DNA of 64,000 bases from an uncultured cyanobacterium (GCA_963706595.1 OY970166.1:3776001-3840000); one strand, 5' to 3'. Positions 39,673 through 52,008 are shown, numbered from the stretch's first letter. Notes: generated by a model from the letters alone, not told the origin. Numbers and translations are program-made.

Positions 39673-39706
39673 AAGATCCCCGACTTCTTGAAGAAGTCGG
39701 GGATCT
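39673..39706. repeat. REP-like palindrome AGATCCCCGACTTCT-tga-AGAAGTCGGGGATCT
   Basis: Perfect inverted arms. Confidence 0.8.
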
Positions 39707-39734: not shown

Positions 39735-42257
39735 TTACAGGTTTGATTTTAACATTCGCGTCTCGATTTCTTGCCACCAAGAAGGGGAAGTTTCGCCAAT
39801 TGCTGCTTTTTTGCAATCAATCATGAACCTAGTTGTATAGAGATATTGCGCCTTTAGTGTTTCTAGCTCTTCTTCAGATAAATCAATAATTTCTGGTGTT
39901 AAATTTAAAGCATCTAGCAAAATTATTCGGAATTCTTCAGCCCATTTATTAAGTTCTTTAAGTGGTTGTTGATTGGGAATATTAGATTTAAGTTTATCTA
40001 GGTTTTCAGATAGTTTAGTAAGTTTTTCATAATTAAATATTTGCAATATTTCAAGTTCACGCGTGGCCTCAATAGCTTGGTTAATGAAGTCGAAGTTGGC
40101 AATGGTGTAAGCGCAGGCATAGGCACTTACGATTAAGAATGGATTGGCGATGCCGTAGGTTTTAGCGATCAAGACGTAGGTCGTGTCGTAGTAGGTGTAG
40201 GCATTAGTGATGGCTATGCTGTAGACGTTTCCAATAGCAATTGCACGTTTACCCACAGGCTGAATAGCTCCTCCTGTTCCTGATGTAATCTCATCTGCCC
40301 AATTTAATAAAGCTTGCAATTTAGGCGTATTGATATAGTTTTGGGATTCTTCTTGCATCAAAGATAACAAATCACATGCATTATCACCCATCAATTCTGC
40401 TACCAATAAAAACACTTCTCGCCAGCGAGGATCTGTCAGGTGTCCTTTAACTAATTGCTCAATTCGCTCATTTTCAATAATGTATTGAGCAGTAAAATAT
40501 TCCTGAAATGTCAGATGAGAGAATGAGTAAATACCCGCCGAGTCAAAACCCTGCGCTCGTTTAATTAATAAGCCATGTTGCGCCTCTATAGCTTTTAGAA
40601 CTTCTAGACTCTCATTAGTTGAAATATCTTTGAGATATTCAGCAATATATGTTTGAATTTCAGTTTCCTCAAATAAAGCATATTGCTCTTGATTAAACTT
40701 ACGATTAGCCACATAACTCAGAAGTTTCTGCTTGTCATCTAGTGACAAATTACGATAACGTTCAACACCTAAATCTCGCTGGATATCGCTGTCTTTATGC
40801 CACTGTTCTAACAGCAGCTTGATTCCACTTTTATATAGTTTAGAACGTTGAAAGGGTAAATTTTTAGACTCACCGAAAATCCAGCAAGTCAAACTCAATA
40901 GGATGGGAGTTACAGCTAAATCAGCAATTTGCTTATTTTCCGGTAATCTGAGTGTTGCTAAAAATTTCGCTGTAAGTTCTTCACACTGCTGAGGTGTTAA
41001 TGTAGCAAACCAATTTTCAGCAAATTTTTCAACTTGTTGTGGTTTAAATTCAGCAACTTCAACATAATCGAAATTTTCTAAGGTGTATTCTGTTGTTTGC
41101 GTTCTACAAGTCAGGATAAAATGATTTTTGTAATACTGGGTTTCGCGAGAAAATTCCTCAATTTTCTTTTGAACATTTCGCCGTGAATCACTAGGAACTT
41201 CATCCAATCCATCCAGAAAAATCAAGACTTTACCTTGCTTGAGAATTTGCTTTGTCTGTTCCTGATCTGGCAAGTCAAATTCTTGATGGATCTCGTTTAA
41301 TAAATTGAACTGACTAGCATTTTTGATGGATCTAAGTTCAATCAAAATTGGGATGTGTTCAGATTTAAACTCACCCTGACAACAAGCAATAGCTAAATGT
41401 CGTAAAAATGTAGTTTTACCTGCACCGGTTTGACCCAAAATCATTAATTTATTGTATTTTTTTGCTACTGCAAATCCATCGTCTCTATCTCCACGCTGCC
41501 CTAATGCAACACGGTCAAAGTTATCTCCCAAATTCGAGTCTTGAAGTAGACTTTCCATTGTTGCAAAAGTCTCACTAGAAATACTTTTTAAAAGGTAAAC
41601 ATCCACATAAAGCTGGTCAACGTCAATCCGCTTACCATTCAATAACTTTATTTTGCTGTATAGGTTTTGAATCTTATCACAACATTGCGATCGCACTTGC
41701 TGAACTAGATCATCAATGGACATAATACCCTTTGAGTGAATGATACTGTCCTTTTCTTGGCGAAGCTTCACTTTCTCCTCATCATCAGCTACATATATCT
41801 CCTCTCCGTCTTTACGTCTAATCAGAAGATTGTTTCGTCGATATCCCCCTTGTAAATCTCTTGTCAGCGTGTGCAAAAATGGGCTTGGTGGAATAGAAAT
41901 AACAAATAAATATTTCCCATCTAGTGAGACTAATTCACAATTTATTTCTGCAATACGTGGATTGCAAGCTGAGTTAACTTTATCAAGTATTTGCTTTTTA
42001 TTAATTGTTATTTCGCCAACATCTCGTAAATCTCTTGTTCCGTCAAGCTTTAATTTATTTCCAGCACCAATAATGAGATATCCTGTTTCCGTTGCTGTCC
42101 CAATGTTTCCATTAGTTATAGATAATATATCCTTGATGAATTCATCCCATTCTTTATTTTCTACCTTGCCGCCATAGATTACCTTGGACTCGCTTTTAAA
42201 ATCAAGCTTTGCGCCTTCTTCCCTTCCAATCAAGCACCGGAGTTCTTCACTATCCAT
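39735..42257 (-). CDS. Schlafen/AlbA_2-domain NACHT NTPase
   Basis: N-terminal EEGAKLDFK..IKDILSITN..GYLIIG; Walker A GQTGAGKT; Walker B IFLDGLDE; TPILL; FSHLTFQEYF; PRWREVF. Confidence 0.85.
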   Translation of the reverse strand: MDSEELRCLIGREEGAKLDFKSESKVIYGGKVENKEWDEFIKDILSITNGNIGTATETGYLIIGAGNKLKLDGTRDLRDVGEITINKKQILDKVNSACNPRIAEINCELVSLDGKYLFVISIPPSPFLHTLTRDLQGGYRRNNLLIRRKDGEEIYVADDEEKVKLRQEKDSIIHSKGIMSIDDLVQQVRSQCCDKIQNLYSKIKLLNGKRIDVDQLYVDVYLLKSISSETFATMESLLQDSNLGDNFDRVALGQRGDRDDGFAVAKKYNKLMILGQTGAGKTTFLRHLAIACCQGEFKSEHIPILIELRSIKNASQFNLLNEIHQEFDLPDQEQTKQILKQGKVLIFLDGLDEVPSDSRRNVQKKIEEFSRETQYYKNHFILTCRTQTTEYTLENFDYVEVAEFKPQQVEKFAENWFATLTPQQCEELTAKFLATLRLPENKQIADLAVTPILLSLTCWIFGESKNLPFQRSKLYKSGIKLLLEQWHKDSDIQRDLGVERYRNLSLDDKQKLLSYVANRKFNQEQYALFEETEIQTYIAEYLKDISTNESLEVLKAIEAQHGLLIKRAQGFDSAGIYSFSHLTFQEYFTAQYIIENERIEQLVKGHLTDPRWREVFLLVAELMGDNACDLLSLMQEESQNYINTPKLQALLNWADEITSGTGGAIQPVGKRAIAIGNVYSIAITNAYTYYDTTYVLIAKTYGIANPFLIVSAYACAYTIANFDFINQAIEATRELEILQIFNYEKLTKLSENLDKLKSNIPNQQPLKELNKWAEEFRIILLDALNLTPEIIDLSEEELETLKAQYLYTTRFMIDCKKAAIGETSPSWWQEIETRMLKSNL

Positions 42258-42340: not shown

Positions 42341-42598
42341 TCATTTGCCGATACGCTCAAGTTCTTCTCGCAAAACTCGCCTTAATGTATCTTCTAATGG
42401 TTCTCGATGCTGCTGAATATATTCACGCAAAACATCGTTAATCAAAGTTTGGTAATTTCCCCCACCTGCTAGGTGAACTTGCTCACGAAACCATGCCAGT
42501 ATTTCATCATCTAGGCGAATTGTAATTCGAGTTTTGCCAGATGGCGTTGGCTCAATTGCTCCTCGCTTACCTTGGCTAAAATGATACTCAGTTTCCAT
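42341..42598 (-). CDS. brnA: BrnA-family antitoxin (orphan)
   Basis: EYHFSQGKRG..KTRITIRLDDEILAWF..GGGNYQTLIN. Confidence 0.85.
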   Translation of the reverse strand: METEYHFSQGKRGAIEPTPSGKTRITIRLDDEILAWFREQVHLAGGGNYQTLINDVLREYIQQHREPLEDTLRRVLREELERIGK

Positions 42599-42614
42599 AA
42601 ATTATCCCTTTTCA

Positions 42615-42682
42615 TAACGAACCACACCAGACGCAGAGAACACAGAGGAATCAGGGTTTGAGAGAGTTTTTGCGTAAGTCCT
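42615..42682. mobile_element. Partial MITE (TGCGTAAGTCCT end); related copy in the opposite orientation at 61354..61444
   Basis: Shared AGGACTTACGCA terminus and GGTTCGTTA core. Confidence 0.65.
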
Positions 42683-42687
42683 GTTGT

Positions 42688-42966
42688 TTAAAAATCTTCA
42701 TCATCAACAAAAAACTCAGCATCGTCATCAAATCGAGACTTACTCGAACCTGAACCAACAAGACCCCAAAGAGGTTGCAGTAAAGCCATACCAATTAAAC
42801 CCACGCCAGCGCTAAAAGCCAGCACTAAACCGACTGGGATTTGAATTGTTTGAAAAGTTAAGAATTTTAAAGATACAGGTGTGGCATTTTGAACTGAGAT
42901 AATCGCGATCGCGACTACCCAAATAGCCACAACTAGAGATATAAAAATAGGAATCAAAGTTTTCAT
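42688..42966 (-). CDS. LapA/DUF1049-family small membrane protein
   Basis: Two TM segments around SVQNATPVSLKFL. Confidence 0.8.
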   Translation of the reverse strand: MKTLIPIFISLVVAIWVVAIAIISVQNATPVSLKFLTFQTIQIPVGLVLAFSAGVGLIGMALLQPLWGLVGSGSSKSRFDDDAEFFVDDEDF

Positions 42967-43027
42967 AATAATTAAAATTCATACTCCCCTCTCCTTACCA
43001 AGGAGAGGGGCTGGGGGTGAGGTTTGA

Positions 43028-44573: not shown

Positions 44574-45437
44574 ATGTCATTTACTAATCGACCTTTTGCC
44601 AGTTATCACCTTTGGTCTTTAGTCGCCCCAGCCACAGGACAAGAACGTTGGCATTGCCAGATGAGAAGGGGGTTTATTAAAGCGCGTCAACATGAACCGC
44701 AAGTTAAAGCGCTGTTAGGTAAGGCTACAGCACCCCAGAGGATTGGTATCCTCGCCCAAAAAGGCGTTTATGAATTCCATCATAATAGACATCTGTTACA
44801 CCAATCAGACGGTGTAGACCAAGTTGCCCAGTTACTCAAATTAAGCAACTCAACTGAACAAGTACAACAGCGCGTACGGCAAATTCTGCAAAAATATCAT
44901 GATGCCCCATTACTGTTAAATAAACAGATTGTCCAATTAACACGGGGAGATGAAGGCTTTCCCAAGCCCATTTTTGTGGAACAGGAAGATGTGCATTTCC
45001 GCTTATATGCAGCTATGGACTGTGTTTTTCAAGAGTCTGATTGTACGTTGCATATTTTAGACTTTAAAACTGGCAAATCTGCCTTTGACAGACGACAAGC
45101 ATTAGTTTATCTCCTAGCTGCGCGTTATCTTTACCCTGAACTACAAGCAGTAGCATCATTTTATAATCTGGAGATGTCTCAAAAATCCGATTTAATTAGC
45201 CTGAATAACCGGGAATTAGATTCTTTAAAGTTAGATTTAGCAAATATTGCCAACAAGCATCAATCCGATATCCGAAAATATCACGAAAAAGCCAGTAATT
45301 TTAGTCAAATATTTCCTCCCAACCCAGGTAAACACTGCCGTTTTTGTCCCTTTAACTCAATTTGTGATTTTTCTGAAAAGACATCTTATTCACACCCATT
45401 GCCTAATTTGAGAACTAATGGCAGAGGAGGGGGTTGA
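44574..45437 (+). CDS. PD-(D/E)XK nuclease, Cas4/AddB-like with four Cys
   Basis: WHCQ..., MD, LDFKTG, QALVY, CRFCPFNSIC. Confidence 0.8.
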   Translation: MSFTNRPFASYHLWSLVAPATGQERWHCQMRRGFIKARQHEPQVKALLGKATAPQRIGILAQKGVYEFHHNRHLLHQSDGVDQVAQLLKLSNSTEQVQQRVRQILQKYHDAPLLLNKQIVQLTRGDEGFPKPIFVEQEDVHFRLYAAMDCVFQESDCTLHILDFKTGKSAFDRRQALVYLLAARYLYPELQAVASFYNLEMSQKSDLISLNNRELDSLKLDLANIANKHQSDIRKYHEKASNFSQIFPPNPGKHCRFCPFNSICDFSEKTSYSHPLPNLRTNGRGGG

Positions 45438-50757: not shown

Positions 50758-52008
50758 ATGTACCTGAAAAATCTACACCTGAGACAATTTCGGAATTACC
50801 AAGACCAGAAGGTTGAGTTTACTGCTGCTAAAACAATTCTGGTGGGTAATAATGCTCAGGGAAAATCTAATTTGTTGGAGGCGGTGGAGTTGCTGGCGAC
50901 GTTGCGATCGCATCGGATGGGACGCGATCGCGATTTTATTCAAGAAGGGCAGGATATAGCTCAAATTAATGCCACTCTGGAGCGAGAAAATGGTACTAGC
51001 GATTTGGCTTTAACTCTCCGCCGCAATGGTCGCCGCAGCGTGGCGATTAATGGCGAATCCGTGCGCCGACAAATGGATTTTTTAGGTGTACTAAATGCTG
51101 TACAGTTTTCTAGTTTGGATTTAGATTTGGTACGCGGTGGTCCCGATATTCGTCGTAATTGGCTAGATACATTATTAATTCAACTGGAACCAATTTATGC
51201 TCACATTTTGCAGCAATACAACCAAGTATTACGCCAACGCAACGCTTTTTTAAGGAAATCCCTAGATTCAGCAGGCGCGATGAATCGGAATCAAGCAGGC
51301 GTGATGAATCGGAATCAAGCAGACGCGATGAATCGGAATCAAGAAGACGCGATGAATCGGAATCAAGAAGACGCGATGAATCGGAATCAAGAAGACGCGA
51401 TGAATCGCGTCTCTACAAGGGATTCAACGCTGGCTATATGGGATGCTCAGTTAGTTAATACTGGTACTAAGGTAATTAGAAGACGCGATCGCGCAATTCA
51501 AAGACTAGCACCCATCGCTGCTGCTTGGCACTCTAGTATTAGTGGTAGTACAGAAGTTCTGAAAATCAATTATCTCCCTAGTGTGTCTTTGGCAGAAACC
51601 CCCCCAGAAGAAATACAGGCAGCTTTTTTAGCTAAAATTCAACAACGGTCTGCGGCTGAATTCTACCGAGGTACTACCCTAGTTGGACCTCATCGAGACG
51701 AAGTAGAATTAATGATTAATCAAACACCTGCTCGTCAATATGGTTCTCAAGGGCAACAACGAACTTTAGTCTTAGCTCTCAAATTAGCCGAATTAGAACT
51801 CATTGAACAAGTTGTCCAAGAACCCCCCTTGCTCTTACTAGATGATGTTCTCGCTGAATTAGACCCATTTCGCCAAAATCAATTACTTGATGCCATTCAA
51901 GACCGTTTTCAAACGCTAATTACTACTACACACCTCAGTTCTTTTGATGCCCAGTGGCTAAATTCCTCGCAAATTCTTTATGTGAAATCAGGAGAAATAG
52001 TATCGTGA
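50758..52008 (+). CDS. recF: DNA replication/repair protein RecF carrying an in-frame tandem repeat
   Basis: [36 protein letters not shown]. Confidence 0.95.
51271..51417 (+). repeat. 5 x 24-bp tandem repeat plus a terminal palindrome inside recF
   Basis: G(C/A)AG(G/A)CG(C/T)GATGAATCGGAATCAA units ending in AGACGCGATGAATCGCGTCT. Confidence 0.95.

Follow-up and report, generated by a model that had tools for sequence, protein, structure and literature searches.

An intact Schlafen-NACHT-NCH2 gene of an uncultured cyanobacterium as a candidate single-gene antiphage sensor-effector

Introduction

Diverse bacterial NACHT proteins (bNACHTs) are antiphage, mutation of the histidine in their winged-helix domain (WHD) can hyperactivate them, and the N-terminal effectors named for them include Schlafen (bNACHT34; Kibby et al., bioRxiv 10.1101/2022.07.19.500537). 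Prokaryotic Schlafens (pSlfns) use the motif Ex4(E/D)xK (PMC13056530), represented by E17/D22/K24 in CbCash (PMC13462974) and including the catalytic residue D32 of RzAgo (bioRxiv 10.64898/2026.05.29.728809), and this motif was shown to be essential in RorSlfn5, CbCash, and RzAgo (PMC13056530; PMC13462974; bioRxiv 10.64898/2026.05.29.728809). The Schlafen domains of RzAgo and CbCash become active when their oligomeric state changes (bioRxiv 10.64898/2026.05.29.728809; PMC13462974). Both domains are also known from single proteins: SLFN-NACHT proteins share “clade II” SLFN domains with the prokaryotic Argonautes that carry a Schlafen domain (SLFN-pAgos) (bioRxiv 10.64898/2026.05.29.728809), type III CRISPR-linked Schlafen-NACHT proteins form “Cluster 5” (PMC13462974), and the searched portions of a Pfam table of pSlfns hold one SLFN_AlbA_2.NACHT entry, with none assayed in that study (PMC13056530). 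Here we describe a gene of this architecture at positions 39735 to 42257 (minus strand) of a 64,000-nucleotide stretch of DNA, referred to below as the window, from an uncultured cyanobacterium (GCA_963706595.1 OY970166.1:3776001-3840000). We propose, with a probability of about 0.7, that it encodes a bacterial counterpart of the NOD-like receptors (NLRs), a bNACHT that oligomerizes, thereby turning on tRNA cleavage and aborting infection by phage.

The original prediction, made from the window sequence, knew of no characterization of this architecture in cyanobacteria. A literature search that did not extend to the Kibby et al. supplement found no experimental study of a Schlafen-NACHT fusion in cyanobacteria, and the passages of PMC13581612 that were covered do not mention Schlafen. 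However, the combination is already in print as a prediction (bNACHT34, clade II, and Cluster 5).

Comparison with described systems

The window protein resembles the bNACHTs (bNACHT34) in combining, within a single gene, an N-terminal enzymatic effector, a central NACHT with a WHD histidine, and a C-terminal helical domain, and in having an effector that differs between species of one genus, Schlafen being among the listed effectors. It differs from them in its cyanobacterial NCH2-type C terminus and its low-complexity variable segment. With the SLFN-pAgo RzAgo, it shares a single-lobed Schlafen domain bearing Ex4(D/E)xK, which is 45 to 49% identical to SLFN-pAgo N termini, and may share activation through rearrangement of an oligomer, which we propose by analogy. 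However, its sensor is NACHT-NCH2 rather than a guide-loaded Argonaute, Asn occupies the probable D72 position, and a Pfam search of the protein found neither a pAgo core nor the GHKL ATPase. Like RorSlfn5, EcoSlfn7, and Cash, it carries Ex4DxK and joins Schlafen and sensor in one polypeptide, and tRNA cleavage is predicted for it; the sensors of those proteins are instead Ig-like, DUF262, or Csx15 and lack an NTPase switch (PMC13056530; PMC13462974). SAMD9/SAMD9L and Avs-type STAND proteins also resemble it, with an AlbA_2-fold RNase placed ahead of a STAND NTPase. The architecture of SAMD9 includes a TPR/OB sensor, whereas the window protein has an NTPase of the NACHT clade and no such sensor.

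Domain layout and predicted fold

The gene is a minus-strand open reading frame (ORF) without an internal stop over 840 aa, and it encodes, in order, a Schlafen RNase domain, a NACHT NTPase, a helical linker, a low-complexity variable segment, and NCH2. In Pfam, SLFN_AlbA_2 (PF04326) matches aa 14 to 137 (31.6 bits; cut-off, 25.3), NACHT (PF05729) matches aa 271 to 418 (68.7 bits; cut-off, 26.7), and NCH2 matches aa 749 to 836 (38.6 bits; cut-off, 27), which bears out the gene call of the original prediction together with its AlbA_2-like N terminus, intact NACHT module, and helical C terminus. All of the motifs that it quoted are present: EEGAKLDFK (E14/D19/K21), GYLIIG, GQTGAGKT, LDGLDE, and FSHLTFQEYF. 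On the minus strand, the Schlafen effector domain (aa 1 to 172, from Pfam, homologs, and fold matches) occupies 41742 to 42257, the NACHT nucleotide-binding domain (NBD) 41004 to 41447, and NCH2 39750 to 40013. Between the last two lie the winged-helix motif FSHLTFQEYF (40494 to 40523) and a hypervariable segment rich in Ala, Ile, Tyr, and Asn (aa 661 to 735; 40053 to 40277), a putative sensor surface with a low predicted local distance difference test score (pLDDT) at aa 684 to 707. A tandem DNA repeat underneath this low-complexity segment was looked for, and none was found.

Structure prediction places the N terminus among Schlafen and SAMD9-type folds. An AlphaFold model of aa 1 to 175 (28-row alignment; pLDDT, 94) matches DIP2311 best (Z, 10.2; root mean square deviation, 3.5; 142 residues aligned), followed by SAMD9 (Z, 8.8) and SLFN11 (Z, 5.7), with SLFN5, SLFN12, SLFN13, and SLFN14 also matched. 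This link came through folds only; a PDB sequence search with the Schlafen domain gave nothing useful, identity to the solved Schlafen-fold chains is 11 to 20%, and an NCBIfam scan of the protein assigned no family. The full-length model (93-row alignment; pLDDT, 78) matches the folds of NLRC4, NLRP3, and NOD2. The layout is tripartite, with a C terminus that is a short helical domain rather than a repeat solenoid and that may act in sensing. An ESM Atlas search with aa 600 to 840 returned NCH2 and unnamed clusters and gave no clue to a ligand.

Catalytic and switch residues

The catalytic motif, as defined in PMC13056530 and PMC13462974, is E14-x4-D19-x-K21 (42195 to 42218). In an alignment of 165 Schlafen domains (28 from proteins of similar length and 137 more), 161 homologs cover this motif, and 160 of them keep E-x4-[DE]-x-K intact. 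The original prediction asked about an acidic triad, in which E14 and D19 are intact and the probable counterpart of the third acid is N67 (42057 to 42059), the column following G-x-L-I-I-G. Most homologs have Asp in this column (D in 133, N in 27, and E in 5 of the 165), and its spacing alone suggests that N67 is likely the counterpart of SLFN11 D252 and RzAgo D72. Mutating that position raises activity in both proteins, and the acid is dispensable in RzAgo (bioRxiv 10.64898/2026.05.29.728809). The triad is incomplete, yet N67 is probably not a lesion, given that loss of the likely equivalent acid raised activity in RzAgo and SLFN11. The clade has additional invariant residues of its own (E39, D43, R147, and K169), and the basic K-T-P-K-K loop of the clade consensus has a small deletion in the window protein.

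The NACHT module retains Walker A (G275 to T283), Walker B (D349/D352/E353), and sensor R385. The 93-row alignment shows conservation of G275 to T283, D349, R385, P451 (GxP), and H581, the last being by motif the counterpart of H443, the ADP-latching histidine of NLRC4.

Distribution and modular evolution

The closest homologs carry the names Aphanizomenon, Dolichospermum, and Nostoc, pointing to a cyanobacterium of the Nostocales type. The Schlafen domain falls in a mobile clade with 396 representatives (E ≤ 0.001). Among 28 proteins of similar length, its fusion partners are NACHT-NCH2 (five proteins, query included), NB-ARC-TPR, NACHT-WD40/HEAT, Argonaute, TIR, and pentapeptide repeats. The Schlafen version is rare: of 400 genomes sampled from the phylum, 6 have it, as do 13 of 388 other family genomes and none of 10 congeners, and the window gene is the single SLFN_AlbA_2 match in its own genome (G000; 5.57 Mb). 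NACHT-NCH2 is common, with some match in 55 of 60 relatives and 2968 proteins matching aa 560 to 840. A scan of named genomes with the single protein gave just two AlbA_2 genes, both distant, viral contigs contained one locus, a viral fold library gave only distant Schlafen-like matches, and relatives in four metagenome contig sets were present as fragments only. Two variants of the clade stand out: a 1216-aa Schlafen-NB-ARC-NACHT-NCH2 protein with two tandem STAND modules (G167, L062:7579-11226, minus strand) and a gene apparently split near aa 58 by an insertion of ~1.2 kb (G527, L157).

Comparison by segment indicates that both ends of the protein have been exchanged independently. P0002 matches the window protein over the Schlafen domain (74%) and the core (74 to 78%) and not over the C terminus (9 to 17%), whereas G006 and P0029 have the core and C terminus in common with it and a different N terminus. 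Schlafen, hydrolase, EAD1, and other N termini sit on cores that are 57 to 82% identical, and they interleave on a quick maximum-likelihood tree of 39 NACHT cores, in which the window core and the hydrolase allele of G006 are sisters (SH-aLRT, 97). Pairwise Nei-Gojobori dN/dS against the G006 ortholog is 0.33 for the NBD, 0.46 for HD1/WHD, and 0.27 for aa 601 to 660 (0.27 to 0.48 over the NTPase core overall), rising to 0.91 for aa 661 to 735 and 0.82 for aa 736 to 840, with no value above 1. The NTPase core is under purifying selection, and the C terminus changes rapidly.

The chromosomal slot

The slot, defined as the interval between a conserved lapA-like gene at its left edge (42688 to 42966, minus strand) and a kinase, was compared across the 10 congeneric genomes. 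It is empty in G003 and G002, holds a toxin-antitoxin (TA) gene of the DUF5615 type in G004 and G010, and has brnA with a relic covering aa 707 to 840 in G001 and relic fragments (aa 454 to 574 and 798 to 840) in G005. In G006, an alpha/beta-hydrolase ORF is followed by a complete NACHT-NCH2 with 71% identity; the slot is rearranged in G008 and G009, and G007 ends at a contig end and is uninformative. A genome of another genus (G576) has an intact Schlafen-NACHT-NCH2 gene directly after lapA, followed by HigB, with 68% aa and 79% DNA identity to the window gene and 77% DNA identity in the flanks. A metagenome copy (L063) lacks aa 376 to 594, which could be an assembly error. Occurrence is patchy rather than universally syntenic, as the original prediction required, and effectors are swapped.

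Among 20 further family genomes picked from 119 lapA hits, none has a NACHT gene within 6 kb, and most have small TA-like genes at the site (ORFs judged by eye). The window gene is an old, vertically kept allele of a hotspot, often deleted or re-armed. The site downstream of the lapA-like gene (window 42600 to 42690; L158 to L177) is a family-wide hotspot for TA genes and other cargo, including BrnTA, DUF5615-type, HigB, and restriction-like genes, and some genomes carry partial lapA duplicates. Recent horizontal import is unsupported; the DNA identity to G576 equals that of the flanks, and the GC content of the gene (36.7%) is that of the adjoining conserved kinase (37.6%), so the AT richness noted in the original prediction is no sign of recent import, even though the gene ranks in the lowest 9.5% of 1153 ORFs of at least 400 aa (mean, 42.4%).

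Upstream, 83 nt from the gene and on the same strand, lies an intact orphan antitoxin gene, brnA (42341 to 42598, minus strand; 85 aa; PF14384, 46 bits). Its partner brnT is missing, and the position that brnT has in relatives is occupied by a dispersed repeat of ~70 bp (42614 to 42685); an intact brnT-brnA pair is found at the equivalent slot of G474. The locus had been described as a decayed TA locus, which holds for the toxin but not for the antitoxin. A 15-bp terminator-like hairpin directly after the stop codon (39674 to 39706, minus strand) is also a dispersed genomic repeat. The slot is flanked by three distinct repeats (39674 to 39706, 42614 to 42685, and 42981 to 43024), palindromic or short and dispersed through the genome in dozens of copies each, and these may drive slot deletions. 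Elsewhere in the window, a gene at 50758 to 52008 (plus strand) encodes a RecF-like protein with inserted 7-aa repeats (MNRNQED-like) and a tandem DNA repeat underneath.

Defense context of the Schlafen clade

PADLOC, run without a control set on ORFs chosen by eye (69 of the 133 at 16 of 18 metagenome or viral loci, plus selected ORFs of six genome loci), gave clear defense neighbors at 7 of 22 Schlafen-clade loci and weak ones at 3. The clear neighbors are type III-D cas operons (L078 and L088), DISARM (L044), HEC-01 (L107), PDC-S41 (L061), PDC-M26A (L089), and a CBASS-type endonuclease (L074). At L078:1574-2743 and L088:7998-11024, the clade members lie inside the type III-D CRISPR-Cas operons, one of them bearing WD40 repeats, and at L044:5215-8763 (minus strand; G036), an SLFN-pAgo of the clade is immediately upstream of DISARM drmA/drmB. 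A plasmid copy of the clade has VapC, DNA methyltransferase, DUF3883, and TIR genes as neighbors.

Near the window gene, at 44574 to 45437 (plus strand), is a PD-(D/E)XK nuclease gene matching the PADLOC model Aga_Cas4-like_Nuc (E, 1.5e-125). It is syntenic across the genus and in G576, an Argonaute-associated-type Cas4 without an Argonaute. A link to Argonaute through this nuclease was rejected, since PIWI has no match in G000 (94% complete) and the nuclease is kept in congeners that lack the Schlafen-NACHT gene.

Proposed mechanism and alternative explanations

In the proposed mechanism, the NACHT module would keep the protein as a closed, ADP-bound monomer latched by H581, and the fast-evolving C terminus (aa 661 to 840, including NCH2) would sense something made by the phage or a host protein that the phage has disturbed. 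Nucleotide exchange would lead to NACHT oligomerization, and in the oligomer several single-lobed Schlafen domains would form an active RNase, cutting tRNAs by means of E14/D19/K21 and a divalent metal and halting translation. The infected cell, probably of a filamentous cyanobacterium, would die or arrest before phage maturation. Trigger, oligomerization, substrate, and protection are inferred steps of this scheme; the domains, folds, intact motifs, core selection, C-terminal change, effector swapping, and repeated loss to which it appeals are observed. By analogy with RzAgo and CbCash, a change in oligomeric state could activate the Schlafen domain, and this is something that a NACHT module supplies. 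Effector swapping and repeated loss represent turnover typical of conflict genes. None of the sequence-level grounds on which the original prediction would fall (an N terminus not matching AlbA_2, missing catalytic acids, or universal synteny) was encountered, and its reading of a sensor-effector acting in abortive infection appears to be the best one.

Several observations weigh against antiphage defense. No classical defense island surrounds the gene: PADLOC applied to 15 ORFs within 10 kb on either side gave ATPase cross-hits and the Cas4-like nuclease and no recognized defense system, and applied to the protein itself, it gave a weak match to PDC-S60 in the NACHT region (E, 4e-14). Only two of seven prokaryotic Schlafen systems protected Escherichia coli, and we also count here that ~30% of pSlfn genes lie outside defense islands (Perez Taboada et al., PMC13056530). 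The C-terminal dN/dS values, all <1, derive from single pairs whose low-complexity stretch aligns uncertainly, and relaxed constraint fits them as well as diversifying selection does.

The same biochemistry could serve a switch for cell death or translation arrest that is triggered by stress or development in a multicellular cyanobacterium, with the C terminus reading a host signal. Cyanobacterial NACHT paralogs are many and enriched in multicellular forms (bioRxiv 10.1101/2022.07.19.500537), the window genome has five additional NACHT-like genes, and the gene sits among housekeeping genes and TA modules. However, all 10 congeners have lost or replaced the gene, which, like the swapping of effectors, fits an arms race better, and we regard such a switch as unlikely. 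The gene could also be silent or decaying cargo, inherited from past conflict, no longer selected here, and heading for the deletions seen in sister genomes. The relics in G001, G005, and L063, the missing brnT, the small deletion in the basic loop, and promoter-like sites that do not exceed background (8 versus 11.3 ± 3.6) would agree with this, but the 2.5-kb ORF is uninterrupted with every catalytic motif kept, dN/dS is low across the NTPase core, and the same-slot ortholog in another genus is intact, which makes decay quite improbable.

The choice of target is a further question, as the Schlafen domain could act on phage or plasmid RNA or on rRNA or be a nucleic acid-binding adaptor, or the system could restrict plasmids or other mobile elements. 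The extra invariant residues, the low identity to solved chains, and the plasmid-borne clade members leave room for this, and RzAgo depleted phage transcripts as well (bioRxiv 10.64898/2026.05.29.728809). The prokaryotic Schlafens with the motif that the cited studies characterized nevertheless all cut tRNA (PMC13056530; PMC13462974; bioRxiv 10.64898/2026.05.29.728809), and we consider a different target or role very improbable.

A candidate frameshift signal in hydrolase relatives

In G006, the hydrolase and NACHT ORFs overlap, with NACHT in the −1 frame (L031:11130-11190). Hydrolase matches numbered 44 in 39 of 251 family genomes, and of the best 30, which were examined (L109 to L138), 17 belong to longer in-frame ORFs, 1 extends past the end of its locus, and 12 end shortly beyond the hydrolase domain. 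Each of the 12 short genes has an in-frame A_AAC_CCT (10 genes) or A_GAC_CCT (2 genes) within ten codons of the stop, versus none of the 17 long ORFs, the filter for this slip motif having been chosen after the first loci were seen. In 11 of the 12, a hairpin follows ~5 nt downstream of the slip site (z, −2.2 to −6.6), and the −1 frame is open for 111 to more than 500 codons, compared with 5 to 70 for the +1 frame. The twelfth, in the lapA slot of G474, has lost half of the hairpin and the downstream ORF. Pfam assigns the 11 −1 ORFs to NACHT (two), NB-ARC (six), GUN4 (one), or no family (two).

Of the cells of the 11-bp stem, 95.9% are paired, and 6 of its 11 pairs show changes on both sides. 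This covariation was reached by none of 500 shuffles and by no slid control, the structure being drawn from the same sequences. The overlap has no start codon in 9 of 10 loci checked (GTG and TTG starts after the stop not counted), the first in-frame ATG being 24 to 230 codons on or absent; the G006 overlap does contain an ATG. A strict version of the pattern was found in 3 of 201 genomes, all at these hydrolase loci, and the reversed control gave 0. Taken together, these sequence patterns point with good confidence to a real programmed −1 frameshift, which was not found in print, including the main texts of PMC3711429 and PMC5009743. T_TTA_AAT was rejected as the slip site of G006, as it is not conserved, unlike A_AAC_CCT. 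Another example of the candidate signal is L110 in G520. Frameshifting does not apply to the window's own gene, in which Schlafen and NACHT are already fused in frame, and a scan of the G000 genome found no such signal, its one weak candidate being comparable to control heptamers.

These relatives suggest a wider reading, to which we give about even odds, of a plug-and-play cassette in which a NACHT-NCH2 chassis stays at one slot across genera and the N-terminal effector is exchanged near aa 178, Schlafen being hard-fused and hydrolase alleles attached by frameshifting. In such a cassette, N67 at the position of the inhibitory acid may mark a natural high-activity form. One mRNA would yield free hydrolase effector and a minority effector-NLR fusion, setting an inflammasome-like effector:sensor stoichiometry, and attachment by frameshift would recur on NACHT, NB-ARC/Apaf-1-like, and GUN4 partners.

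Implications

A Schlafen RNase under NACHT control would be the bacterial counterpart of an NLR switch coupled to an SLFN/SAMD9-type tRNase. The window allele is intact and, by way of a WHD histidine mutant, should be activatable without a known phage, which makes the question directly testable, and the natural alleles on one chassis permit effector and sensor swaps by which sensing in the NCH2 region could be mapped. If the frameshift is real, the hydrolase alleles would show that bacterial NLR immunity can also set effector dosage by recoding.

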